Shown piece by piece: positions 5,970 to 46,028 of a stretch of 64,000 nt of DNA. The DNA is taken from IMG/VR virus record IMGVR_UViG_3300027804_000063, positions 1 through 64,000 of that record. One strand, 5' to 3'. The notes under the pieces were generated by a model. The model did not search any database. It was not told where the DNA came from and saw only the letters and a program-made list of their open reading frames with translations. Each line of letters opens with the position of its first letter. Within the stretch, counting starts at the first letter, position 1. The translations under genes and the position numbers were made by a program. Source of the stretch: a virus. Lineage: Duplodnaviria > Caudoviricetes.

Positions 5970-6409
5970 GGTGATATCACTGTAGACGATGAGGTGGCTT
6001 CTGAAATTGTGCGTATGAGCCTACGTAAGTCGGGGTGATATATCGCGTTATTTAGGTTTATCCGATATTCGTAGCGTCCTTTGACTTTTGTTCTTGTTAC
6101 TAGTTTGTTTTTGCTCAATAAAGATATGGCTTTTATGATTGAGGTGTTCGTTACCCCCAATGTGGTGGCGAGTTCACGGACGGTCAGACCGGGTGTTTGC
6201 ATCAGGTAAAGCAGAACTCTGCCCGGTGGGGTTAACAGATTGACATTGCTTTTAGGTGTGTAAGCAATGATGTTTTGTTCGTCTAGTTCTTCAAGGATTG
6301 CTTCAACAAGTTGTTTGGCGGAAAGGTTCTTTGTTTGGGCGTCTTTGACAACTCTTTCTAGTGGTCCGCGTATCGCATGATCTCGTCTGTTGTCATGATT
6401 GGACGCCAC
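5966..6409 (-). CDS. MarR-like winged-helix regulator
   Basis: LTVRELATTLGVTNTSIIKAISLLSKNKLV HTH. Confidence 0.75.
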   Translation of the reverse strand: MASNHDNRRDHAIRGPLERVVKDAQTKNLSAKQLVEAILEELDEQNIIAYTPKSNVNLLTPPGRVLLYLMQTPGLTVRELATTLGVTNTSIIKAISLLSKNKLVTRTKVKGRYEYRINLNNAIYHPDLRRLIRTISEATSSSTVISP

Positions 6410-6862: not shown

Positions 6863-8067
6863 GCAAACTTAAAAATACTTTGACTGATATCGCCTTGGAT
6901 GCGGATGGTCACCCGAACGGAGACAAAGCATGGGCGACCGTCTCACCAGACGGCGGAGAGTTATCCACAGGGGCGATGCCGACAGAACTTGGTTCAGATT
7001 GGGACACTGTTCTCAAAGGATTTGGACTAGATCCAAATATTTTTGAAATAGTAGATGACACTGTCAAAATGTCTAAATGGCAGTCATCTAAACGCCTAGA
7101 GAACGGCGACCGCGACTTGATATGGCTTTACTCGTACAAGGCACGATTCCGACGCAAAAGTCTTACAGGTTTAAACGAGGAGCAAGTAAACGAAATCCGT
7201 AATTATGTACAGAAATGGAAACCTGTCAATAAGCCTACGGTTCCTGTCTCCAAGGAGGCGGGCGCAACAATGGTTGTTTGTTGGGCGGATCAACAGTTAG
7301 GCAAATCCGCTGGTGGCGGTGTAGACGCAACGGTTGAAAGAATTCTTGACAGTTACACGGCGACTATTGAGCGGGTTAAGGAACTTCGCAAAATAGGGCG
7401 CAATATAGAGAAGATCGCCATCGTGAACATGGGTGACCCTGTGGAAGGATGCGACGGGCAGTATTCAAGTCAATTGTTTACAGTGGAACTCACTCAACGG
7501 GAACAACTCCTGTTGGCGATAGATCTTTGGTCTCAAGGTTTACGACAACTAGCCCCATTAGCAGAGCAAGCAGAGTTCATTTCTGTTCATTGTAACCACG
7601 GTGAGTGGATGCGTCGTAACGGGAAACAGGTAACTAGTGACTCTGACAATGTGGGCGGGTTTCTTGCTGACACTGTGAAACGGATTGTAGAGGACAGACC
7701 AGAGTTAGATAAACTACAATGGAAAATTCCGCACGACGAGATGGTTATCACCTCCGTGCTATCAGGTGTCAAAGTTGCTTTCCATCACGGTCACAAGATC
7801 AGTGGTAAAGAGGTGGAATGGTTGCGCGGGCAGTCAATCAAGATTCTGCGCGAAGAAGGACGCGAACCCGATATTTGGGTGACAGCACACAGACATCATT
7901 TACAGGTACAAGATTTCGGACCTTGGTACAGGTTTCAATGCCCATCTAATGATGGTGGTTCCAAATGGTATACGGATATGACTGGTAACTGGTCTACACC
8001 GGGAACTCTTACTTTCCTTGTAGGGAAACATGACCCTAAAGGTTGGTCAGATATGGCGGTTCTTTAA
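6859..8067 (+). CDS. metallophosphoesterase-like protein
   Basis: DxQ, GD, NHGE, HHGH, AHRHH metal-binding motifs; start at ATG 6859 after GGAGG. Confidence 0.7.
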   Translation: MSKLKNTLTDIALDADGHPNGDKAWATVSPDGGELSTGAMPTELGSDWDTVLKGFGLDPNIFEIVDDTVKMSKWQSSKRLENGDRDLIWLYSYKARFRRKSLTGLNEEQVNEIRNYVQKWKPVNKPTVPVSKEAGATMVVCWADQQLGKSAGGGVDATVERILDSYTATIERVKELRKIGRNIEKIAIVNMGDPVEGCDGQYSSQLFTVELTQREQLLLAIDLWSQGLRQLAPLAEQAEFISVHCNHGEWMRRNGKQVTSDSDNVGGFLADTVKRIVEDRPELDKLQWKIPHDEMVITSVLSGVKVAFHHGHKISGKEVEWLRGQSIKILREEGREPDIWVTAHRHHLQVQDFGPWYRFQCPSNDGGSKWYTDMTGNWSTPGTLTFLVGKHDPKGWSDMAVL

Positions 8068-9341
8068 TGACGGCACAAATCATTAATGGGGACTGTCGCG
8101 AGGTTTTAAAAACTTTAAAAACAAACTCTGTAGACAGCATTGTTACAGACCCACCATATGAACTGGGTTTTATGGGTAAGTCTTGGGATTCAACAGGGAT
8201 TGCTTACAATATAGAAGTTTGGCAGGAATGTTTACGGGTTCTTAAACCCGGCGGTCATCTGCTTGCTTTTGGTGGTTCTCGCACCTACCATCGTCTTGCT
8301 TGCGCTATTGAGGATGCAGGGTTTCAGATTCGTGATCAGATTATGTGGGTGTATGGGTCAGGTTTCCCTAAGTCGTTGAACATCAGTAAGTCTATTGAAG
8401 GGCTACTGACAACTGGTTCGGCGAACAAAACAGCGTTCAAAAATCTATCTGGTGAGCAGGTAGATCGCGGTAATTGGGGGATTGCTAAACAACAGTTCAC
8501 GCACGGTCAGCGTGACACTAACTATGACGAAACCGCTGGTGGGCAACGGTTAGGGAAACTTGAACCAACCACCGATGAGGCTAAGCAATGGGAGGGTTGG
8601 GGAACTGCATTGAAGCCTGCTCACGAACCGATTGTGATGGCACGAAAACCATTGGAAGGAACTGTGGCACAAACCGTTCTTGAACACGGCACAGGTGGCA
8701 TCAACATAGATGGATGCCGTATCGGATCAGGAACAGGTGAAACAAAAACTGTTCAATACCCAGATATCCGAGGCAACAACTACAACAACGCTGAAGGCAC
8801 AGTTGAATATCAGGTGATATCGCAGGGTCGGTTTCCTGCGAACTTCATTCATGACGGTTCAGACGAAGTACTAGAACTATTCCCCGACAGCAAAGGTGGT
8901 GCTTATCCTGCCAAACGAGGTCAGGCTGTGAACACCTCATTTGCTAGTGGACAAGAAACTGAAGGCGGGTTCAGATCAATGGGCGATTCTGGTTCTGCTG
9001 CACGGTTCTTTTATTGTGCTAAAGCCAGCAAGAAAGATCGCAACGAAGGCTTAGACGGATTTGAGGAGAAACGACCCGATGAGCGCAGCGTGACTGGTAT
9101 GGGAACTTTTGAGGAGAAGGGTGTTGCCAAACAAGCCAATCACCACCCAACGGTGAAACCCACAGACCTGATGCGCTATCTGTGCAGACTGGTAACACCA
9201 CCAAACGGCACAGTCCTAGACCCATTCACAGGATCAGGCTCAACAGGTAAAGCGGCGAAACTAGAAGGCTTCAGTTTTATTGGTATAGAACAATCAGCCG
9301 AATATGTACAGATAGCCACAGCCCGCATAAAAGCCGTATAA
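8067..9341 (+). CDS. beta-class amino (m6A/m4C) DNA methyltransferase
   Basis: TDPPY before LDPFTGSG; long insert between motifs. Confidence 0.92.
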   Translation: MTAQIINGDCREVLKTLKTNSVDSIVTDPPYELGFMGKSWDSTGIAYNIEVWQECLRVLKPGGHLLAFGGSRTYHRLACAIEDAGFQIRDQIMWVYGSGFPKSLNISKSIEGLLTTGSANKTAFKNLSGEQVDRGNWGIAKQQFTHGQRDTNYDETAGGQRLGKLEPTTDEAKQWEGWGTALKPAHEPIVMARKPLEGTVAQTVLEHGTGGINIDGCRIGSGTGETKTVQYPDIRGNNYNNAEGTVEYQVISQGRFPANFIHDGSDEVLELFPDSKGGAYPAKRGQAVNTSFASGQETEGGFRSMGDSGSAARFFYCAKASKKDRNEGLDGFEEKRPDERSVTGMGTFEEKGVAKQANHHPTVKPTDLMRYLCRLVTPPNGTVLDPFTGSGSTGKAAKLEGFSFIGIEQSAEYVQIATARIKAV

Positions 9342-9364
9342 ACCTAAACGACAGGAACTTACAC

Positions 9365-9649
9365 ATGGCATTCAACCCCAACTACACACGAGATGACATC
9401 AACTGGTATTTAGAACAAACAGACCAAACAGCCGTACTCATGGACGGCTTTGAACACGCAATCATCGGTTTCTCCCAACGCATAAACGAACCACTCCTAG
9501 CCGTCTACAACCACGACCTCATGATCCAAACACTCATGCAACGAGACGGCATGACCTACCAAGAAGCCGACGAATACATAGAGTACAACTGCATCGGCGC
9601 ATGGATCGGCGAACAAACCCCCATCATCGTAAAACCCATAGCGATGTAA
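9365..9649 (+). CDS. hypothetical phage protein
   Basis: DGFEHAIIG...YNCIGAWIGEQTP, a pattern recalled from phage hypothetical proteins. Confidence 0.7.
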   Translation: MAFNPNYTRDDINWYLEQTDQTAVLMDGFEHAIIGFSQRINEPLLAVYNHDLMIQTLMQRDGMTYQEADEYIEYNCIGAWIGEQTPIIVKPIAM

Positions 9650-9651
9650 CC

Positions 9652-10275
9652 ATGACAACAATCATCGGAATACAAGGAGACGGATACTGTCTCATAGCAG
9701 GAGACACACGAATAGCATCAGTAGACAGCAACGGTGTCGCCTACCAAATCAACACCCTCAAAACCGAAACCTCCAAAATAGCGGTAAACGGCAAATACCT
9801 GATCGGCACAGCAGGAGACCTCAGAGCCATCAACCTCCTCACCCACACCCTCAACCCACCCGTCTGCCCACCAAACCTCAAAGGCAAAAAACTAGACGAA
9901 TTCATCACCAACAAACTCATCCCCACCATCAAAGAAATGTTTGAAAAAAACGGTTACACCGTCAACGAACCAAACACCAACACAAACAAAGCCGAACACG
10001 ACTCAGAACTACTCGTAGCCATCAACCAAACCCTCTACCTCATAGACGGCGACTACTCATGGTTCACAGACCAAACAGGAATCTACGCCCTCGGCACAGG
10101 AGCAGCCTACGCACTCGGCGCCCTACACAACATGCCAACCCCCAAAAACCCTGCACAAGCCAAAAAACACGCCCTCAAAGCCCTAGCCACAGCATCCAAA
10201 TACGACCCAAACACAGGAAACCCATACCACACCCACATACAACAAACACAACAGAAAACAGATAAACCTAAATGA
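9652..10275 (+). CDS. proteasome-beta/HslV-like Ntn peptidase
   Basis: MTTIIG N-terminal Thr nucleophile, IAGDTR, SKI, GTAG, ALGTGAAYALG. Confidence 0.75.
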   Translation: MTTIIGIQGDGYCLIAGDTRIASVDSNGVAYQINTLKTETSKIAVNGKYLIGTAGDLRAINLLTHTLNPPVCPPNLKGKKLDEFITNKLIPTIKEMFEKNGYTVNEPNTNTNKAEHDSELLVAINQTLYLIDGDYSWFTDQTGIYALGTGAAYALGALHNMPTPKNPAQAKKHALKALATASKYDPNTGNPYHTHIQQTQQKTDKPK

Positions 10276-10586
10276 AACAACAACACCACAAACCCCAAGA
10301 CGATACACAAACAAAACGCTGGCAAACCCACGCAGCCTGCCGCGGAAAAACAAACCTCATGTTCCCCCAACACCACAAAGACATCACCTACATACTCCAA
10401 GCACGAGAAATATGCGCCCACTGCACCGTCAGACCACAATGCCTCAAAGAAGCCCTAGAATACCACCCAATAGACATGCACGGAGTCTGGGCAGGCTTAA
10501 CATCACGACAACTAGCCGCCGAACAAAAACGCCGAGGCATCAAACCAATCCGACCATCAATCAGCCAAATGTGGGATCTATCCTAA
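10272..10586 (+). CDS. whiB: WhiB-family Fe-S transcription factor
   Basis: C...C-x2-C-x5-C and GVWAG. Confidence 0.92.
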   Translation: MKQQHHKPQDDTQTKRWQTHAACRGKTNLMFPQHHKDITYILQAREICAHCTVRPQCLKEALEYHPIDMHGVWAGLTSRQLAAEQKRRGIKPIRPSISQMWDLS

Positions 10587-10877
10587 ACAAACCCCACACA
10601 CATCACAAAAAACAGAACCCAAAACCTCAACAGGCTTCTTACCACAAGACGGCAAACCACAAGGCTCCAACCTACGCTCACCCCGCAAATAAGCCACCAC
10701 CCCCGACAAAGGCTCAACAGGATCCGAAACCTCCAACAAAGCCCGACCCTCACTATCACGCAAACCATTCACCAACAACAAACCCACAAGTTTCTGAAAC
10801 GAAACACCCGAACCCTCAGCCAAATCCACCAAACCATTCTTCAACCACCCCGGCAAAGGAACAGTCACAAAAACCAT
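10578..10877 (-). CDS. RHH-like protein with C-terminal Zn ribbon
   Basis: ATG 10877; VTVPLPGWLKNGLVDLA then CxxxxC and CxxC; the longer track start lies in low-complexity sequence. Confidence 0.55.
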   Translation of the reverse strand: MVFVTVPLPGWLKNGLVDLAEGSGVSFQKLVGLLLVNGLRDSEGRALLEVSDPVEPLSGVVAYLRGERRLEPCGLPSCGKKPVEVLGSVFCDVCGVCLG

Positions 10878-10902
10878 ATCCCCATCCCGAGCACGCCTAG
10901 AC

Positions 10903-11088
10903 CTAAACCCCAACAGAACCACCCCAATCCCGAACCACCAACATCCCCAAATACTCACCAATAGACAAATCAAAAGCATCCGCCTGATCAACCATCAAAT
11001 TCTTGATGTCTGCGTCTATTTTTATGGTTAGGGTTGTTTTTGTGTTTGGTTGTGCGCGGTGTGGTGGGCGTCCGTGTCGTTTTTTCAT
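10903..11088 (-). CDS. ribbon-helix-helix DNA-binding protein
   Basis: GRPP hook, TLTIKIDADIKNLM...LSIGEYL. Confidence 0.7.
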   Translation of the reverse strand: MKKRHGRPPHRAQPNTKTTLTIKIDADIKNLMVDQADAFDLSIGEYLGMLVVRDWGGSVGV

Positions 11089-11202
11089 TTTGGTTTGTCT
11101 CCGGCTGGTGGGTGTTTGGCATTTTTTCGTGCGAGGTATAGTCCGAGGAGGATTCCGTGTGAGAGTCCGATGATGATGCCGTGTATGTATTGGGTCATTA
11201 TG

Positions 11203-11631
11203 TTATTGCTTTGTTATATGTTGGTTGTATGTTTGTTTGAAGTGGTCTCTGTCTGCGCCTGTGGTGAGGTTGAGTCCGACTATTCGTATTACTTGTTGTA
11301 GTTTAACTGGGATTTGGGTGTCGGGTTGTGCTGTTCCTGAGTTGACGGTGTCTCGTATGTGGCAGTACAGGTTCCATGCTTGTGTGGCGGTTGGTTCTGC
11401 GTCTGGTTGGGTTTGTTGCCATTCTTCGTGGATCATGCCGGGTGTGGGGAGGAAGCGTTCTGTTCTGTTTAGTTTAACTAGGATGAGTTCTAGTTGTTTG
11501 TATGGGCAGTCTTGGAGGACAAGATCCCATGCTGTGTAGATGGTTTGTTTTTGTTTGGGGTCGTTGGGGAGTTCTTTGTTCCACATAGAGTAGGCGAGGT
11601 TGACTAGTTCTGTGGATTGTTGTTGATCCAT
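11203..11631 (-). CDS. replicative helicase loader/inhibitor (G39P-like)
   Basis: W..VL.D.PY...FLPTPG...AWN pattern; directly downstream of the rep-like gene. Confidence 0.65.
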   Translation of the reverse strand: MDQQQSTELVNLAYSMWNKELPNDPKQKQTIYTAWDLVLQDCPYKQLELILVKLNRTERFLPTPGMIHEEWQQTQPDAEPTATQAWNLYCHIRDTVNSGTAQPDTQIPVKLQQVIRIVGLNLTTGADRDHFKQTYNQHITKQ

Positions 11632-12053
11632 TATTCGCCTGCTTTGCGTCGTGGGCTGTTGATGAAATCTTGTTGGGCGTCGCGTTTCTCTGATCGTTGG
11701 ATGAAGCCTTCTATTTTGTCGGCGTCTCGGAATATCAAATCTATACCGTTATATTTTTTTTGTTGCGGGTTGTCGCCCATATGGAATGGGGAGGATGCAC
11801 AGCCGTCTATGGCTTGGCAGGATGCTTCTATGCCGTAGTCGTGGATTGATGCGGCGATTTTGACTTTGCGTTCGTGGTCTAGGACGGCACGGGTGGAGCC
11901 CATTGTTTTAACCCAGTAGTCCCATACGATTTTGACTGCTTCGTCGGAAATTTCTTTGGCTTTGGCGTTGCGTTGTTTTGTGGAGATCCGTGGACGGGTT
12001 TGTTTAGGTTTATTTACGCCACCGTTCGGATTGGGAAACAGTTCTTCAACCAT
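11631..12053 (-). CDS. phage replication-initiator C-terminal-like protein
   Basis: VWDYW...AIDGC..SPFHMG.N...YN.IDLIFRD pattern; coupled to the loader-like gene. Confidence 0.55.
   Translation of the reverse strand: MVEELFPNPNGGVNKPKQTRPRISTKQRNAKAKEISDEAVKIVWDYWVKTMGSTRAVLDHERKVKIAASIHDYGIEASCQAIDGCASSPFHMGDNPQQKKYNGIDLIFRDADKIEGFIQRSEKRDAQQDFINSPRRKAGE
12010..12034 (-). repeat. CGCCACCGTT box copy 1 (inside rep-like gene)
   Basis: tattta-CGCCACCGTT-cggattgg. Confidence 0.85.
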
Positions 12054-12317
12054 CGCAGACACTTTACATCCTTTTACTGAAAAGGTCAACATTGGAATCT
12101 ATAAATATCTGGTCCGGCCGGACCGGACGTTGTGGCAGTAATCATCTGTGGTAGCCACGTTGATTTAACTAAAGAGGAAAAACCACTAGTGGGTTTAAAA
12201 CTTTGGAGAGTGTGAGAACCTTTACCAAATCTTTTTTGGCGGACGCGCAGCCGAAACAAGATCCGCGATTTTGGGTAGTCGCAGATTAAGATTTGATTAT
12301 TGATCGCGCGCGAAAGG

Positions 12318-21838: not shown

Positions 21839-21871
21839 TTTTCCACAGGGTTATCCTCAACCTGTGGATAA
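21839..21871. promoter_or_regulatory. DnaA-box cluster (3 boxes)
   Basis: TTTTCCACA, TTATCCTCA, TGTGGATAA (perfect). Confidence 0.6.
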
Positions 21872-24353: not shown

Positions 24354-24374
24354 TTATCCACAGGCTGTGAATAA
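24354..24374. promoter_or_regulatory. inverted DnaA-box pair
   Basis: TTATCCACA (perfect)-ggc-TGTGAATAA. Confidence 0.65.
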
Positions 24375-39234: not shown

Positions 39235-39605
39235 GCGACACCCCCGACAACCTAGAAGTAGCAATGAACAAAGTCGCCGAGGACTTGACTCCGACGCGAT
39301 CGCGTGCAGTTGGGAAAAAGAAGAAAAGTGAAGACGGGACTGAACTTTCTTCAACAGCACAAGAACAGGTGTTGTTTCGCGCTTCAACTGAGGACAAACA
39401 GAAATGGGAGGAATGCGCCAAACATTTGGGTATTTCTTTGGCTGAGTTTCTGCGTGTTTCCGCAAACGAAAAGGCTGAAAATGCGATGAAAGGTTGCGAA
39501 CACCCGTTGGCTTTCCGCCGATCTTTCCCGTGGATGGAAGAATGCTTGAAATGCGGTGTACGACTCCGCAACGAAGACAGAACAACTTATCAAAATCGTC
39601 GCTAG
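39231..39605 (+). CDS. RHH-like DNA-binding protein with Zn ribbon
   Basis: VLFRASTEDKQKWEECAKHLGISLAEFLR; CEH...CLKC. Confidence 0.65.
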   Translation: MSDTPDNLEVAMNKVAEDLTPTRSRAVGKKKKSEDGTELSSTAQEQVLFRASTEDKQKWEECAKHLGISLAEFLRVSANEKAENAMKGCEHPLAFRRSFPWMEECLKCGVRLRNEDRTTYQNRR

Positions 39606-39958
39606 TGAAGCCCCGCAAACCGCTCAAACGAACGCCACTCAAACGATCAACTAAACCGATCAAGAAGAAGTCGGCTAAACGGGAAGTCGCTGATGTAGAA
39701 CGACGCATCTTTGTTGCAATGATGCTGAAAAAACACCCGTATTGTGTTGCGTGTCCTGTGTTCGCTGAACATGATGGCTTAGTTGCGTATGTTCGCCGTC
39801 CTTCGCGTGACATTCACGAGTTGGTGCGACGATCTCAGGGCGGATCAGTGGTTAGTGAAGATAACTGTATTGCTGTGTGTCGGGACTGTCACAACAGGAT
39901 CGGCAACTATCCTCAGTTGGCTTTTGATTTGGGGTTAGCGAAACACTCGTGGGAATAA
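39605..39958 (+). CDS. HNH endonuclease-like protein
   Basis: GTG 39605; CVAC...DIHE...SQGG...NCIAVCRDCHN. Confidence 0.8.
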   Translation: MKPRKPLKRTPLKRSTKPIKKKSAKREVADVERRIFVAMMLKKHPYCVACPVFAEHDGLVAYVRRPSRDIHELVRRSQGGSVVSEDNCIAVCRDCHNRIGNYPQLAFDLGLAKHSWE

Positions 39959-40861: not shown

Positions 40862-40904
40862 TATCAGTCATATGTCAAGTATCACCCGCAAACCACCCGT
40901 AGCA

Positions 40905-41123
40905 CTACCGCTCAACCCTCCACCTCAACCCCAAACCCCTACGCCTCGCATTCGCCTCCAACCTACGAGACCGCTCAGGCTCAGGCAACAACAAATACTG
41001 CGCCACACGCTTAGCATTCTTTCTCTCACGCTCATACTCACGCCTATGCAAACGCTTCGCCTCAGAATCCTCACGATGACACCGTTGCCACTCCCTATGA
41101 TCTGAAATATTTTTGTAAGGCAC
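40905..41123 (-). CDS. Arg/Glu-rich hypothetical protein
   Basis: GTG 41123; PYKN...REWQR...RREYERER. Confidence 0.5.
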   Translation of the reverse strand: MPYKNISDHREWQRCHREDSEAKRLHRREYERERKNAKRVAQYLLLPEPERSRRLEANARRRGLGLRWRVER

Positions 41124-41355
41124 AACACCCCCTATACAAAACAAAAACAATACAAACAATCACAACACTTGCAACAACATTCTCAAAGTTCGTCACAAAC
41201 ACAAAATGCAACAACTGCAACAACCAATACACGGCGACCATCACAAACAACAAAGGCACAAGGACACGCATCACAAAACCCTTACAACATAAGGGTTATA
41301 CGACAACACACACTGCAACAAGATCATAAGCGGGGCTGTCAACCTTTTGAACACG

Positions 41356-41541
41356 TCAGATAGCAGGGGGCGGTGGTGCGACAATTTTTTTGGTCGGGTT
41401 TTGTTTTTTAGGTTTATCTGTCGTGGGGCTGTTTGGTTTTGGTTTGTAGATTTTTTCTAGTTGTTGGATTTCTTTTTGGAGTTGTTGGATTTCTTTTTCT
41501 AGTTGTTTGATTTGTTGGTCTAGGTTTTTTGGTGGTGTCAT
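41356..41541 (-). CDS. coiled-coil micro-protein (or overlap artefact)
   Basis: heptad KEIQQL repeats encoded by a 21-bp tandem repeat. Confidence 0.4.
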   Translation of the reverse strand: MTPPKNLDQQIKQLEKEIQQLQKEIQQLEKIYKPKPNSPTTDKPKKQNPTKKIVAPPPPAI

Positions 41542-41854
41542 TGGGTGTGCTTTCTGTTTGGTGGATCATGTTGATGCAGGTGAGGTAGCCGATGGTGTCT
41601 AGGAGTGTGTCGTAGTGGAGTTTTCCTTGGTCTAGGTTGGTTTTTAGTCGTGCGAGTTTGACGGAGACCATGAAGAGTAGTGCGTCGTTGAGGGTGAGTT
41701 GGTGTCCTGTGAGTGTTTTGTAGATGTTGATGACTTTGGTGTAGTCGTCTTTGGGGTGTCCGTAGGTGTTTTGTCTGTCTTGGTTGACGATTTTGTGGGC
41801 GTGTTGGAGGATTTCGGTTCCGGGGGTGGGTTGTTTTTTATTTGTGTTGGTCAT
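41414..41854 (-). CDS. DUF6378-like protein
   Basis: A..IVN.DRQ..YG.P...MV.VKLARL...H.D...D..GY. Confidence 0.75.
   Translation of the reverse strand: MTNTNKKQPTPGTEILQHAHKIVNQDRQNTYGHPKDDYTKVINIYKTLTGHQLTLNDALLFMVSVKLARLKTNLDQGKLHYDTLLDTIGYLTCINMIHQTESTPNDTTKKPRPTNQTTRKRNPTTPKRNPTTRKNLQTKTKQPHDR
41460..41510 (-). repeat. 21-bp tandem repeat
   Basis: AGTTGTTGGATTTCTTTTT repeated with period 21. Confidence 0.7.
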
Positions 41855-41861
41855 GGTTGTT

Positions 41862-42032
41862 TTAGTTTATCTGTGCTGGGTGTGTTGGGGTGTTTTTAAA
41901 AAATGGGCGCGGCTTTTGTGGGTTTTTTGTTTTGTGTATTGTGCAGTGTTTTTCTGTGGGGGCGGTTTGTCGTCGGCATGGTGTTCCGCTGTATGCGGTT
42001 TTTGCGGTGCATTTTCTGCGGTTTTGGTTCAT
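41862..42032 (-). CDS. small C3H Zn-ribbon protein
   Basis: CTAK...GTPC...HCTIH; ATGA overlap at 42029-42032. Confidence 0.5.
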   Translation of the reverse strand: MNQNRRKCTAKTAYSGTPCRRQTAPTEKHCTIHKTKNPQKPRPFFKNTPTHPAQIN

Positions 42033-42562
42033 AGGTGTGTGAGTTGTTGTTCGTTTAGGGTGAGTCTTGGTCCGTAACCGTAGTCGGTTTTTTGGGCGTT
42101 TGCGAAAAAGTTTTCGCGGGTTGTTCCGCCGATTATTTGGAATTGGGTGTTGGTGCCGATGTTTTCCCATTGGTTTTTGGGTTGGTTGCACCATACGACT
42201 AGGCATTGTTCGGTTTCGGGTTTCCATAAACCGTATTTGCAGTGTTGGGGGTCGTTGATGATCAGGTTTTTTTGGCTTGATGTTTTTATTTCGGTTGTTT
42301 TGCCGTTGATGGTGGTGTCAAAGCCGTGGTCTGCGCCTATATAGATTTCCCAGTCTATTTCGGTGTTGTAGTAGCGGGAGACGATGACTTCTCCTGCTTT
42401 GCCGAGCATGATGATGCCTTTTTCGGTTGCTCCTGCCGTGTATTTTCGGTCGGTTACTTGGTGTTCGTTTTTGTTTGCTTTACATAGGTTGGTGAATTGG
42501 CGTAGTTGTAGTACTTCTCGGGCGGTGAGGTGCATCAACGGATATTTAGTAGCAGTTTCCAT
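42029..42562 (-). CDS. PD-(D/E)xK nuclease-like protein
   Basis: GKAGE...GFD...TEIKT. Confidence 0.55.
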   Translation of the reverse strand: METATKYPLMHLTAREVLQLRQFTNLCKANKNEHQVTDRKYTAGATEKGIIMLGKAGEVIVSRYYNTEIDWEIYIGADHGFDTTINGKTTEIKTSSQKNLIINDPQHCKYGLWKPETEQCLVVWCNQPKNQWENIGTNTQFQIIGGTTRENFFANAQKTDYGYGPRLTLNEQQLTHL

Positions 42563-42588
42563 TGCGTTGTAGTTTATCTAGCGTGGGG

Positions 42589-42858
42589 CTATTTTGTTTT
42601 TGAGATGATCTGGTAACCCTCGTCGGTAACTGCCACCTGCCATTGGACTTCGCTGAATCGTTGACGCAACCCGTACACCTCTATGGTGATTTTGTTGAGT
42701 GGTTGGGTTTGTCCCACGAAATTTTTGTATACGACCCATTGGTTTGGGTTTTGTTTTACTTGTTCTACGAACAGTTGGACTCGTCCTCGTGTTTGTTTTC
42801 TTGTTACGAATGTGGGGTTTTCCACAAATTCAAGTTGGCTGAATGTTTCGGTAATCAT
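42589..42858 (-). CDS. hypothetical protein
   Basis: ATG 42858 after CAGGAG and a promoter. Confidence 0.6.
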   Translation of the reverse strand: MITETFSQLEFVENPTFVTRKQTRGRVQLFVEQVKQNPNQWVVYKNFVGQTQPLNKITIEVYGLRQRFSEVQWQVAVTDEGYQIISKTK

Positions 42859-42900
42859 TGTTATTTCTCCTGTATTTCTAGGTTTATTTATTGTGTGATT

Positions 42901-42929
42901 AGTGTAGCGGGTATTTAAACAAAAAGCAA
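42901..42929 (-). promoter_or_regulatory. sigma-A-type promoter
   Basis: TTGCTT-N17-TACACT. Confidence 0.65.
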
Positions 42930-42932
42930 CTT

Positions 42933-43649
42933 TTATTTGCCTTGTATTTGTGCTTCTTTCACATATTTTTCGTCTATATCGTATCCGATATATTTTCTGC
43001 CGAGTTTTTGGGCGGTTGTTGTGGTTGTTCCGATCCCGTTGAAGGGGTCTAGGACGATGTCGTTGGGTTGTGTGGTGAGAAGGATGCAGTTTTCTACGAG
43101 TTGTGTGGGGAATGGTGCGGGGTGGATTGTTTGCCGTTGTGGGGGGATGTCCCATATTTCGCCAAGATATTTGGGGTCTATGTTGTCACGGAATGTTTTT
43201 GGCTTGTCTTTGGATAGCCAGTAGATGTGTTCGGTGTTTGGAAGCAGATGGTCTTTGCGTATGTTGGGGCTGTTTTTGCGGTTCCAGATGATCAGTTGAT
43301 ATATGTGTGCGTTTGTTTTGTGTATGAATTCGGTGGGTAGCCGTGCTTGGTTGTTGTGTCGGCGTGGTTTGTGGTTGAAAAAGATTGATCCGTCGGGGGT
43401 GATGATTCGGTGTAGTTCGTTGATTATTTCTATTATCCAGTTTTGGTATTCGTTTTCTGGCATGTTGTCGTGGTATTCGTTGTAGTCAATATTGTGTTTC
43501 TGCCAGATTTGGTTGCTGTTTTGTGTTTTGCCGTTTTGGATACCTTTTTTGTTGTATGGCGGTGAGGTGATAATGGTGTTTATGCTGTTATCTGCAAGGT
43601 TTTTGAGTTCTTGTAGGGCGTCACCGCATTTTATGATGTTGGTCTCCAC
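42933..43649 (-). CDS. beta-class amino (m4C/m6A) DNA methyltransferase
   Basis: TSPPYN, HPAPFP, VLDPFNGIGT. Confidence 0.92.
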   Translation of the reverse strand: METNIIKCGDALQELKNLADNSINTIITSPPYNKKGIQNGKTQNSNQIWQKHNIDYNEYHDNMPENEYQNWIIEIINELHRIITPDGSIFFNHKPRRHNNQARLPTEFIHKTNAHIYQLIIWNRKNSPNIRKDHLLPNTEHIYWLSKDKPKTFRDNIDPKYLGEIWDIPPQRQTIHPAPFPTQLVENCILLTTQPNDIVLDPFNGIGTTTTTAQKLGRKYIGYDIDEKYVKEAQIQGK

Positions 43650-43676
43650 GCGGTTTAGTTTATCCAGCGTGGGACG

Positions 43677-44195
43677 TTAGAACGGTTCTCTGTTGACCGA
43701 TTTAGCGTTTCTGGTTGTTTTCTGTATGCGCCAAATTGTGTTGCTAAAAAGCGTTTCGGCTTGATCAGCGTTTTGTCCTGATAAGAGCATAATGTGGTGT
43801 TCTGATGTTTCTGGAAGTGTGTCAAACGGGTACCCCTGTAACGCACCTTCCGCATATTGGCAGTTGGATATTTCCATAAGGAACCGCCAGTCTTTTTCTT
43901 CTTGTGGGGTGTGGAGCGAGTTGAAATCTATGTAGAGACCTTTGAATGATTGAAGCGCTATTTGTGATGCTGTGTTGAATGCGATTCCGCCTGTACCAAT
44001 ACAGATGATTGTGTCGCATTGGTTTTGGAGTGCCGTAATGTCGGGGAGTTCTATGATCCCTGCTTGTTTTGCAAGTTGAACGGTTTCTGTTTTTCGGCTT
44101 TGGCTAGCGAAATAGGTTTTGTGTCCGTTCATGTGAAGGGTGAGCGCAAGTGTGCGACCCATTTTGCCGGGTGAGATTATTCCTATGTGGTTCAT
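43677..44195 (-). CDS. 6-phosphogluconate/3-hydroxyisobutyrate-dehydrogenase-type NAD-binding domain protein
   Basis: IGIISPGKMG Rossmann motif, YIDFNS; appears to lack the C-terminal domain. Confidence 0.7.
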   Translation of the reverse strand: MNHIGIISPGKMGRTLALTLHMNGHKTYFASQSRKTETVQLAKQAGIIELPDITALQNQCDTIICIGTGGIAFNTASQIALQSFKGLYIDFNSLHTPQEEKDWRFLMEISNCQYAEGALQGYPFDTLPETSEHHIMLLSGQNADQAETLFSNTIWRIQKTTRNAKSVNREPF

Positions 44196-44488
44196 CGCCA
44201 AGGTGTTGTGTCGTCTCGTGTTTTTTGTAGCGCTCCGCTTATCGCAAGGTTTTTGCCGAATGTGTTGATGGCGTGTATTACGCCAAGAGGTTCAGGAAAC
44301 CCCAATTTTTTTGTCACAACATCTAAGGTTTTTTGTTCTATTTCTTTCCAAGCGTTGAGTACGGCTTGTGCTCCTGTTGTGTGTTCGTTGTAGTAGTTGT
44401 TGGCGATGATGTCTATGCCTTGTATTTCCCATAGTTCAGGGTCGTGTTTTGTTGCCATTTGTACTCGGGTTATTTTTTCCGTATTCAT
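44192..44488 (-). CDS. hypothetical protein
   Basis: ATGA overlaps both ends. Confidence 0.6.
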   Translation of the reverse strand: MNTEKITRVQMATKHDPELWEIQGIDIIANNYYNEHTTGAQAVLNAWKEIEQKTLDVVTKKLGFPEPLGVIHAINTFGKNLAISGALQKTRDDTTPWR

Positions 44489-45237
44489 CGCGTGTTGCTG
44501 ACTCCTCCGTCAACGATGAGGGTTGATCCTAGGACATAATCTCCAGCCTGAGACGCTAGGTACACGACAGCACCAACGATGTCTTCGGGTGTTCCCGTTC
44601 TCCCAACAGGGATATATTTTGCTGTTTCATATGGGTAGTCGCGCGCGTATTGGTTCATGTTTGACGGGAATGCGCCGGGGCAGATTGCGTTTACGGATAT
44701 TCCATCTTTGATGAGTTCTATTGACATTTGGCGGGTGAGATGCAGTAATCCTGCTTTGCTTGCGTGATATCCGTAAGAATGGTCTTGATCTAAAGTAAGC
44801 CCGTTGATGGATGAAATGTTGATTACTTTTGCTAAACGATTATTTTGCTTGTATGACTTTGTCAACATTTTATAAAATCGTTGTGTAAGAAATAGTGGCG
44901 TTTTCATATTTATGTCTACTGCTGTTTCCCAATTTTCTTCCGCATATTCAGTAAAACTTTTTGCGCCTGCGCTACGACCAGCGTTATTTACGAGGATATC
45001 TATGTGGGTTTCTTTTTCTTCTATTTGTGAAACAGCCCGATCTATCCCGTCAAGGGTTGAGAGATCTTCTTTTATGTAGGTCACACTTGTTCGCTCTTGC
45101 AGAGGGTCATGAACGGAAATGTTGTAGACACGAGTGCACCCGAATTTGACTAGTCCCCTCGTAATCATTTCGCCAATTCCGCTTGAACCCCCTGTTACGA
45201 CGGCTACGCGACCTTCAAGAGAAAATAGATTTTTCAT
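44485..45237 (-). CDS. classical SDR oxidoreductase
   Basis: TGGSSGIG, NNAG, ISS, YHASK. Confidence 0.92.
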   Translation of the reverse strand: MKNLFSLEGRVAVVTGGSSGIGEMITRGLVKFGCTRVYNISVHDPLQERTSVTYIKEDLSTLDGIDRAVSQIEEKETHIDILVNNAGRSAGAKSFTEYAEENWETAVDINMKTPLFLTQRFYKMLTKSYKQNNRLAKVINISSINGLTLDQDHSYGYHASKAGLLHLTRQMSIELIKDGISVNAICPGAFPSNMNQYARDYPYETAKYIPVGRTGTPEDIVGAVVYLASQAGDYVLGSTLIVDGGVSNTR

Positions 45238-46028
45238 CCTCTGATCTCTGAAACACCACCATCTAGAACGATGTGTGTGCCCACACAGTAATCACCTGCT
45301 CGTGACGCAAGATAGGTGATTGCCGCGACGATGTCGTCTTTATGTCCAAGTCGTTTTGCGGGGATTCGTTGTGTAACTTGCAGACGGTTTGCGGGGTTGA
45401 CTTCGTTTGGGGTGGTGTTAAACAATCCAACGGTTATAGATGAGGCAACTATTTTGTGGCGGATGTATTGTACGGCGAATGATTTTGTTGCGTGATTTAT
45501 TCCCGCGTTGCTTGAACTGAAGGCGAAGTTGGATATTTGTGGAGGATTGATTCCGTCAACGGTAGAGATGTTGATTATTTTTCCGTAAAGTTGTTCAGTT
45601 GAAATGCTTGTTCCTTCATCTGGGTTAGTTGATGCTTTCAGTAGCGGAAGGAATTTTTCGGTGAGTTTGATTGGGGCTTCCAAGTTGTATTTGATTACCT
45701 GATCCCAATCTTCGGCGTTGTAGAGCGATGAGTTGACAAGAATATTAATGAATGGTTCAAGGGTGCTGATTTCGCAGAATAGTTTTTCTCGTCCTTCTTC
45801 TGTGGTTATGTCGCACTCTATGTGGATAATGTTTTTGTAAATATCGTTCAGTTTGGCTTGTTCTTCTTCGTCTATGACTGTCCGAGGGGTGAACGCTTCT
45901 TTATCGGCAACATATACGCGAGCAACACCTTGCTCTACTAAGCCCTCAGCGATCATCCATCCGTAACCAGTAAATCCACCAGTCAGCAGGGCTATACGGT
46001 TATCTAATGAAAATAGCGTGCTCATCAT
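45234..46028 (-). CDS. degenerate SDR paralogue (probable pseudo-enzyme)
   Basis: TGGFTGYG; YxxxK replaced by FSSSN; NNAG replaced by NSSL. Confidence 0.75.
   Translation of the reverse strand: MMSTLFSLDNRIALLTGGFTGYGWMIAEGLVEQGVARVYVADKEAFTPRTVIDEEEQAKLNDIYKNIIHIECDITTEEGREKLFCEISTLEPFINILVNSSLYNAEDWDQVIKYNLEAPIKLTEKFLPLLKASTNPDEGTSISTEQLYGKIINISTVDGINPPQISNFAFSSSNAGINHATKSFAVQYIRHKIVASSITVGLFNTTPNEVNPANRLQVTQRIPAKRLGHKDDIVAAITYLASRAGDYCVGTHIVLDGGVSEIRG

Follow-up and report, generated by a model that had tools for sequence, protein, structure and literature searches.

Vertebrate mitochondrial DNA has one G/T-rich and one A/C-rich strand, and this asymmetry of heavy and light strands is attributed to the time spent single-stranded during strand-displacement replication. 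It is genome-wide and unipolar, and its C>T and A>G components behave differently. At bacterial origins (oriC) the skew is weak, typically <0.2, and spans entire replichores. Downstream of the ColE1 origin, error-prone Pol I produces a footprint of mutations that fades over ~1–3 kb, and strand-coordinated mutation clusters form at resected breaks. Both are laboratory or somatic phenomena and are either unidirectional (ColE1) or of opposite polarity (C>T on 3′ tails). Actinobacteria have no MutS/MutL and use NucS/EndoMS instead, which cuts G/T, G/G, and T/T mismatches and leaves A/C, C/C, and A/A (PMC11109965). In nucS-deleted Streptomyces, the leading strand gains A>G (3×) and C>T (2.6×) over their complements (PMC11109965). 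GRINS are regions with intense, correlated GC and TA skews of unknown cause and are commonest in Actinobacteria (PMC8256042; PNAS, 2021). Here we describe two islands of intense amino/keto skew in 64,000 nucleotides of a Caudoviricetes genome (IMG/VR record IMGVR_UViG_3300027804_000063, positions 1–64,000; hereafter the window). The + strand of each island switches from A/C-rich to G/T-rich at a fixed point, termed the flip. The islands are a conserved, point-anchored, bipolar variant of the published intense-skew phenomenon; here it occurs in a phage, at two places in each genome.

The window covers the first 64 kb of a viral contig of 74 kb, which is itself judged about half complete. A collinear relative of 138 kb, G001, is 97% complete and served as the whole-genome comparison. 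At least 14 studies yielded freshwater metagenomes with near-identical DNA. An actinobacterium is almost certainly the host, because the phage carries a WhiB regulator gene and an Mre11-like exonuclease whose homologues occur almost exclusively in phages of Actinobacteria. The phage also codes for SSB. Amino/keto skew was calculated as A+C versus G+T on the + strand in 300-nt windows. Background windows from the rest of the genome have a mean of −0.04 and a standard deviation of 0.10.

Island 1 has three parts:
9300–10999, no strand: left arm, + strand A/C-rich, with a ramp from ~9.0 kb and a plateau of +0.5
10999–11003, no strand: flip point 1, an amino-to-keto switch within about 10 nt, located by change-point analysis
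11004–12050, no strand: right arm, + strand G/T-rich

Skew in the left arm climbs from ~0 at 9.0 kb to +0.53 at 10.2–10.8 kb (+0.33 to +0.53 across the arm). In the right arm it is −0.45 at 11.1–11.7 kb, weakens to −0.28, and is gone by ~12.05 kb. Island windows lie at z = 4–5.7 relative to background. The left-minus-right contrast is 1.10 at 10,999, and its maximum outside the two islands is 0.38. A first-pass annotation of the window, made from the sequence alone, had placed a strand-skew inversion near 11,003, and the change point at 10,999–11,003 agrees with it. The zones described there needed new limits. The A/C-rich zone is present, with its ramp from ~9.0–9.1 kb and its plateau from ~9.3 kb, and the G/T-rich zone begins at 11.0 kb as described and reaches ~12.05 kb rather than 11.65 kb. 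A gradient had been reported along the gene at 8067–9341; it is found in the last ~300 nt and is absent over the remainder. GC skew has extremes of −0.64 and +0.44 and AT skew of +0.72 and −0.62, and the two always shift together.

The skew persists at fourfold-degenerate sites, a check proposed in the first-pass annotation, and is strongest there. Pooled sites on the + strand hold A100 C90 G2 T5 in the left arm, A12 C7 G59 T50 in the right arm, and A66 C51 G49 T95 in control genes. A+C against G+T is 190/7, 19/109, and 117/144, respectively (Fisher P = 2e-36 and 2e-9). By codon position, skew is 0.7–0.9 at position 3 and 0.1–0.5 at positions 1–2. Because the skew is far greater at position 3 than at positions 1 and 2, it is a substitution pressure filtered by purifying selection on proteins and no effect of sequencing or assembly. 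Palindromes of 6 bp are ~3-fold rarer in the arms (3.3–4.0 per kb versus 10–13). Stop-codon depletion in the arms is modest, and the expected six-frame openness without stops was not borne out.

The genes around flip 1 are as follows:
9365–9649, + strand: gene of unassigned function (phrog_13182), A/C-coded
9652–10275, + strand: HslV/Ntn-hydrolase-like gene, A/C-coded
10272–10586, + strand: WhiB-family regulator gene (Pfam E = 1e-14), A/C-coded, fourfold sites A22 C21 G0 T0, Cys motif retained
10578–10877, − strand: gene with RHH-like N-terminus and Cys-rich C-terminus, coding strand G/T-rich, opposite to its co-oriented neighbours, fourfold sites A1 C0 G18 T33
10903–11088, − strand: RHH-type gene spanning flip 1, N-terminal half in A/C codons and C-terminal half in G/T codons
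11203–11631, − strand: gene of unassigned function (phrog_9804), coding strand A/C-rich, fourfold sites A29 C28 G1 T4
11631–12092, − strand: O-like replication-initiator-related gene (phrog_16167, E = 1e-17; also phrog_18020)

As had been seen in the first pass, the flip falls inside the minus-strand gene 10903–11088, whose halves use opposite alphabets. The skew follows position and not transcription, since 10578–10877(−) is G/T-coded among A/C-coded neighbours. Differences among relatives in this gene are 19/10/39 by codon position. Being mostly at position 3 and fewest at position 2, such differences identify both 10903–11088 and 10578–10877 as real genes. Sensitive searches with the small proteins around flip 1 gave no match. 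The rep-like neighbour proposed earlier is upheld by its PHROG replication-initiator matches, while a helicase-loader-like label for 11203–11631 found no support in homology searches. Homologues of the O-like protein are restricted to this phage clade. They are called at 137–141 aa, so the true start of the O-like gene is probably near 12056. That position coincides with the end of the island 1 right arm. The skew was also considered as a property of the HslV and WhiB genes and this was rejected: in DSL-LC01, an annotated phage that is more distant, the two genes are neighbours and there is no island.

The feature occurs twice. The second island has the same polarity and is laid out as follows:
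40900–41365, no strand: left arm, + strand A/C-rich, with a weaker tail to ~40.05 kb
41360–41366, no strand: flip point 2, change point 41365, same AC-to-GT polarity as flip 1
41366–44500, no strand: right arm, + strand G/T-rich, −0.6 to −0.7, decaying over ~3 kb
41323–41351, − strand: conserved element at flip 2, AAAAGGTTGRCAGYCCCGYTTATGA, promoter-like (TTCAAA-N17-TATGAT) and directed leftward

The right arm of island 2 is stronger and longer than that of island 1. All island 2 genes are on the minus strand and include an NTP-pyrophosphohydrolase-like gene, a 177-aa gene, a DNA methyltransferase, and others. Flip 2 lies at the same conserved element in 23 of the 23 relatives with enough sequence beyond the flip. 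G001 has exactly the same two islands, ~30 kb apart, and nothing comparable in its other 130 kb.

Island 1 was found in at least nine independently assembled relatives (L002, L005/7/16, L010, L011, L012, L013, L015, and L066). Flip 1 is at the same homologous nucleotide in L002, L005, L010, L011, L013, and L066, the last of which flips there though its O-like protein is only 62% identical. In L015 the flip is ~420 nt further left, at a convergent gene boundary. The L015 orthologues of the RHH gene and of 10578–10877 are A/C-coded throughout, with position-3 skews of +0.81 and +0.89; in the window these genes are mixed and −0.94. The C-terminal half of the RHH protein accordingly reads ...KNLMVDQADAFDLSIGEYLGMLVVRDWGG in the window and ...KNLIIELADGYDMTITEYLTLLIQRD in L015, with Val/Gly/Met/Ser in the G/T-coded copy against Ile/Thr/Gln in the A/C-coded copy. 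Protein sequence is thus dragged along by a DNA process, giving wholesale amino acid differences between orthologues.

The skew tracks distance from the flip and not gene identity. The exonuclease gene has a position-3 skew of +0.63 where it is 1 kb from the flip and ~0 where it is at least 1.7 kb away, and in L015 its thirds have skews of +0.41, +0.73, and +0.76 toward the flip. Skew decays across 1–3 kb on either side of the flips. L005 and L013 are about half as skewed. Lineage-specific inserts in an island 2 arm are skewed to varying degree, and a 1.4-kb insert in L055 reaches only +0.1 to +0.3. Such partly skewed inserts indicate that resident DNA gains skew gradually, in place.

These data define two position-anchored mirror-image zones in which the strand running 5′→3′ away from the anchor has lost A and C for G and T. 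The loss spans 1–3 kb on each side and affects essentially every protein-permitted site, whatever the direction of the genes. The process is slow, acts in place on whatever DNA is present, and is filtered by purifying selection.

Among described systems, GRINS are similar in several ways. The islands have correlated skews and exceed the GRINS threshold of mean absolute skew >0.15. They are strongest at third codon positions, have both signs on one strand within 1 kb, keep functional genes, and show the same amino acid shifts (Gly/Val/Cys/Trp versus Pro/Thr/His/Gln). GRINS differ in that, by definition, they are duplications (>500 bp at >80% identity) that gene conversion spreads through polyketide synthase (PKS) clusters, whereas the phage islands are point-anchored, of fixed AC-to-GT polarity, present exactly twice per genome, and distance-decaying. 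A GRINS-type repeat was rejected because neither island has a second copy in the 74-kb genome or in G001. Like vertebrate mitochondrial DNA, the islands have one G/T-rich and one A/C-rich strand, are near-saturated at fourfold sites, and are graded; their polarity matches the mitochondrial heavy strand. Unlike it, the phage bias is local (1–3 kb) and bipolar around a point, and both of its components are equal; of the mitochondrial marks, distance-graded skew is seen and dominant cytosine deamination is not. Bacterial oriC has the same top-strand switch from A/C-rich to G/T-rich, but the phage skew reaches 0.9 at neutral sites and fades in 1–3 kb. NucS/EndoMS-deficient Actinobacteria have leading strands that gain A>G and C>T about equally, on the same amino/keto axis (PMC11109965; PMC6159521). 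Their bias is about 3:1, chromosome-wide, and seen in mutants, with no local or phage effect described. In the presumed host group, the spectrum of errors and the enzyme that repairs them therefore both act along the amino/keto axis. The ColE1 Pol I footprint and the mutation clusters at resected breaks are, like the islands, kilobase-scale, strand-specific, and distance-decaying from a defined site; they differ in not being fixed evolutionary composition. No precedent for local amino/keto skew in phages was found in the literature searched.

Island sites are held to a two-letter alphabet and are not hypermutating. Between equally skewed relatives, fourfold divergence is 0.14–0.33 inside the islands versus 0.35–0.47 in control genes, and hypermutation as faster divergence was rejected because the island values are not above the controls. 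Nearly all synonymous change in the islands is A<->C in A/C-coded genes and G<->T in the G/T-coded 10578–10877. Compared with weaker relatives, the window has A or C where the relatives have G or T, mostly by transitions (47–73 in this direction versus 5–12 in the reverse), and G/C and T/A transversion differences are likewise asymmetric. Fourfold-site GC rises from 0.38 to ~0.5, which fits purines remaining purines and pyrimidines remaining pyrimidines and so a collapse via transitions. The keto shares of purines and pyrimidines shift equally, including in the unsaturated L005 and L013. Spontaneous hydrolytic deamination strongly prefers C. Equal purine and pyrimidine components therefore argue against plain, cytosine-dominated hydrolytic deamination and fit G.T-type mispairs or a keto/amino-discriminating process. 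The ratio of transversion- to transition-type differences (~0.4) was rejected as a test of fixation versus mutation, because it equals background and relaxation in weak-skew lineages explains it equally.

Sequence elements at the flips were compared. They are, in addition to the flip 2 element above:
10960–11050, no strand: conserved core around flip 1, with a 6-bp inverted repeat CATCAA-ATTC-TTGATG; minus strand GGTTGATCAGGCGGATGCTTTTGAT
11011–11041, + strand: flip 1 copy of a motif common to both flips, TGCGTCTATTTTTATGGTTAGGGTTGTTTTT, which in minus-strand orientation ends 11 nt from the switch
41377–41408, + strand: flip 2 copy of this motif, TGCGACAATTTTTTTGGTCGGGTTTTGTTTTT, found by local alignment with the flip 1 copy

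Flip 1 lies within a ~60-nt peak of local conservation (identity 0.89–0.90 versus 0.72–0.80 in the flanks), and even pairs that are only 72–73% identical share its ~30-nt core as one of their longest identical runs. Centred on flip 1 is a 212-nt tract (10918–11129) identical to G001, which no other run in the 55 kb of alignment (mean identity 80%) equals in length; the runner-up is half as long. The tract reflects either recent gene conversion or exceptional constraint. The ~32-nt block at both flips ends 11 nt from the switch (P about 0.02 versus shuffles and 0.001 versus real island DNA), and the 17-mer GCGWCWATTTTTWTGGT occurs at the flips only, allowing up to two mismatches. As a signal, the shared motif is suggestive; L015 retains a similar block inside its RHH gene with no flip there. 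A string related to the promoter-like element of flip 2 is present at flip 1. The 6-bp palindrome at flip 1 can be produced by any A/C-to-G/T junction. GATC, present at both flips, was rejected as a signal because it occurs often (4.5 per kb) and relatives do not conserve it at their flips. No Rfam match to a structured RNA was found anywhere in the window.

We favour, at somewhat less than even odds, the view that the anchors are sites where DNA synthesis repeatedly starts outward in both directions. Synthesis would begin as an origin-like initiation zone or as nick-primed patch synthesis. Mispairs of the G.T type (G for A, T for C) would escape correction and build up on the outward nascent strands. 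The displaced strand would instead, or as well, be depleted of A and C during its single-stranded phase. On this view the islands would be a local and amplified version of the leading-strand keto enrichment measured in Actinobacteria without NucS mismatch repair, and their limited reach would correspond to how far an initiation patch of low fidelity, or an uncoupled one, extends before ordinary replication sets in. The polarity of both flips is that of leading strands leaving an origin, with the keto-rich strand running 5′→3′ away from the point. The O-like initiator gene is 0.6–1.1 kb from flip 1, and nothing comparable is near flip 2. The near-equal A>G and C>T gains of nucS mutants correspond to the two about equally strong components here and are counted for outward synthesis. 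A cryptic origin with long exposure of single-stranded DNA, as proposed in the first-pass annotation, is one admissible mechanism of this kind and is partly supported: polarity agrees with it, an initiator gene lies near flip 1 only, and the absence of origin elements, of replichore skew, and of cytosine dominance speaks against it.

A number of observations weigh against outward synthesis. No replication genes were found near island 2, and in L015 the flip has moved. G001 has no genome-wide replichore skew; its skew is ~0 within 1–3 kb of the flips and the rest is flat. The bias required at neutral sites is at least 30:1, versus 3:1 between leading and lagging strands in Actinobacteria. No phage mutator was found in the 97%-complete G001 (no family-A polymerase, Prim-Pol, or CDA-type deaminase), and Pfam searches of the largest G001 proteins gave no polymerase. 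The asymmetry of transversions toward A/C would require two-step changes from a pure transition mutator. Flip 1 has no sigma-70-like promoter, terminator, or hairpin above chance. No iteron-like repeat family is present at either flip, apart from low-complexity matches and one coding repeat, and there are no DnaA boxes within 2 kb of either flip. Perfect Escherichia coli-type DnaA boxes (TTATCCACA) are at 21863–21871(−), 24354–24362(+), 6961–6969(+), and 45821–45829(−). Those at 21.9 and 24.4 kb lie in intergenic modules between the islands, distant from both flips, and a classical origin, if there is one, may be near them. No AT-rich unwinding element is present at the flips: 200-nt windows spanning flip 1 have a GC of 0.455–0.475, and the 100 nt with flip 2 have 0.51, all close to the window average of 0.46; there is just a T-rich stretch to the right of flip 2. 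The GRINS signature also occurs within bacterial PKS genes, which are not origins (PMC8256042).

Other explanations were weighed against the same data. That the islands are an artefact or imported DNA (a chimera, an inverted duplication, a sequencing-chemistry effect, or recent foreign DNA) is suggested by nothing except the oddity of the composition itself, and we regard it as extremely improbable. The arms of island 1 share no inverted repeat or duplication and are not reverse complements of each other, intact genes cross the flip, and codon position 3 carries most of the skew. The same DNA was recovered from metagenomes in at least 14 studies, the flip is bridged by a contig of a separate run, and orthologous genes in relatives show graded skew. 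With this bridging contig and at least nine independent assemblies supporting the junction, the assembly chimera at 11.0 kb that the first-pass annotation had raised as a refutation, and with it an inverted duplication, was ruled out. Direct selection for a two-letter strand could act by reducing restriction palindromes and hairpins, or deaminase and alkylation targets on an exposed strand. It would account for the ~3-fold depletion of 6-bp palindromes in the arms, for saturation that is nearly complete while A<->C and G<->T changes are still allowed, and for asymmetry in transitions and transversions alike. However, the per-site coefficients would be tiny, and selection fails to predict a mirror flip in mid-gene, the distance gradient, the moving flip, and the partly skewed inserts, which makes it improbable. 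We are equally doubtful of divergent transcription or persistent R-loops from the flips, by which the exposed non-template strand would lose A and C. The conserved leftward promoter-like element sits exactly at flip 2 with a related string at flip 1, and left-arm minus-strand genes downstream of the element have a keto-rich non-template strand. But the right arms would need strong rightward antisense transcription and no rightward promoter was found, and the left arm of island 1 runs on for 1.2 kb through convergent plus-strand genes. RNA-library contigs carry no strand information that could bear on this.

Break-initiated recombination with biased processing of heteroduplex is the main rival explanation, although on balance we think it unlikely. 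A site-specific double-strand break or end at the flip would be resected 5′→3′, leaving 3′ tails, of the + strand to the left and the − strand to the right, that would anneal to or invade sibling genomes. Host NucS/EndoMS would reject G/T alleles on the tail, which form keto-keto mismatches, and A/C alleles would pass as A.C, A.A, and C.C, such that biased gene conversion over time turns the 3′-tail strand to A/C. The polarity matches canonical 5′→3′ resection, the specificity of NucS is confirmed in the literature (PMC11109965), and an actinobacterial host is almost certain. The model predicts that purines and pyrimidines are affected equally. It also predicts the asymmetry seen in G>C and T>A transversions, A<->C being neutral, and a fixation bias gives near-100% saturation at neutral sites with no raised divergence. 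The 1–3 kb decay is similar to conversion-tract lengths, and GRINS, commonest in Actinobacteria, are linked to gene conversion (PMC8256042). The phage has an Mre11-like nuclease and SSB, an HNH nuclease gene lies 1.4 kb from flip 2, and the 212-nt identical tract is centred on flip 1. On the other side, both the break and its cognate endonuclease are hypothetical here. The long identical tract is found in one pair only, flip 2 has no peak of conservation or recombination, and the closest relative stays the same across the flip. A strand-specific NucS outcome on recombination heteroduplex is our own extension of the published work, and the transversion asymmetry may merely reflect relaxation in weak-skew lineages.

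Whichever explanation applies, a local strand-specific process rewrites kilobases of working genes into two letters, far beyond described bacterial replication skew. The anchored point, fixed polarity, decay, two copies, and graded relatives constrain the mechanism by their geometry, to outward synthesis or to 3′ tails from a break. If the anchors are initiation or break sites, composition alone could locate such sites in uncultured phages. More generally, phages of NucS hosts might carry cis-anchored two-letter zones that arise where each infection cycle opens or breaks the DNA at one site and keto-keto mismatches there are treated differently, in a strand-specific way, from those containing an amino base; we offer this as speculation that is more probably wrong than right by a wide measure. 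If it were true, composition would mark initiation points, programmed breaks, and genome ends, and the phage islands would be a simple anchored model explaining the GRINS of actinobacterial genomes.

Two-letter DNA also confuses gene callers, and one DNA was called on opposite strands in two records. L066 and L067 (7324–8243) have an equal skew profile and flip sequence yet are annotated on opposite strands. In one record the minus strand carries WhiB and HslV-like genes; in the other, a 168-aa open reading frame (ORF) is on the plus strand. The window has spurious long ORFs of its own, such as 10412–10900(+) and 10107–10439(−).

Next to island 1, the DNA methyltransferase gene (8067–9353) is an insertion/deletion polymorphism. 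A contig of run X16 connects 8067 to 9353 with 34 other letters between, and L010, L011, L013, and L015 are without this gene.

Next to island 2, an HNH endonuclease gene is at 39494–39958 (Pfam E = 2e-4), 1.4 kb left of flip 2, and a terminase-size gene is ~9.5 kb from it. In HK97-like phages, HNH endonuclease genes adjoin the cos site. The minus strand at 41255–41290, leftward and downstream of the flip 2 element, has a perfect 8-bp hairpin, AACCCTTA-TGTTG-TAAGGGTT, followed by T residues. The hairpin is conserved, also in L052 and L061–L064, and could be an attenuator or terminator of a leftward transcript. Just right of flip 2, the small ORF 41356–41541 contains three tandem 21-nt units (41452–41516) whose minus strand codes for a heptad-like QQLEKEI repeat.

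The word (C)AGATAAACCTAAA has 13 occurrences at up to two mismatches versus 0.5 expected, at 6051, 9335, 10259, 12003, 17268, 17472, 23125, 24235, 27064, 29695, 41407, 41860, and 47045. It is mostly found at gene junctions, directly ahead of start codons or across stop codons. It may be a phage-specific signal for translation initiation or gene junctions in A/C-coded genes, whose composition leaves no room for a G-rich Shine-Dalgarno sequence.

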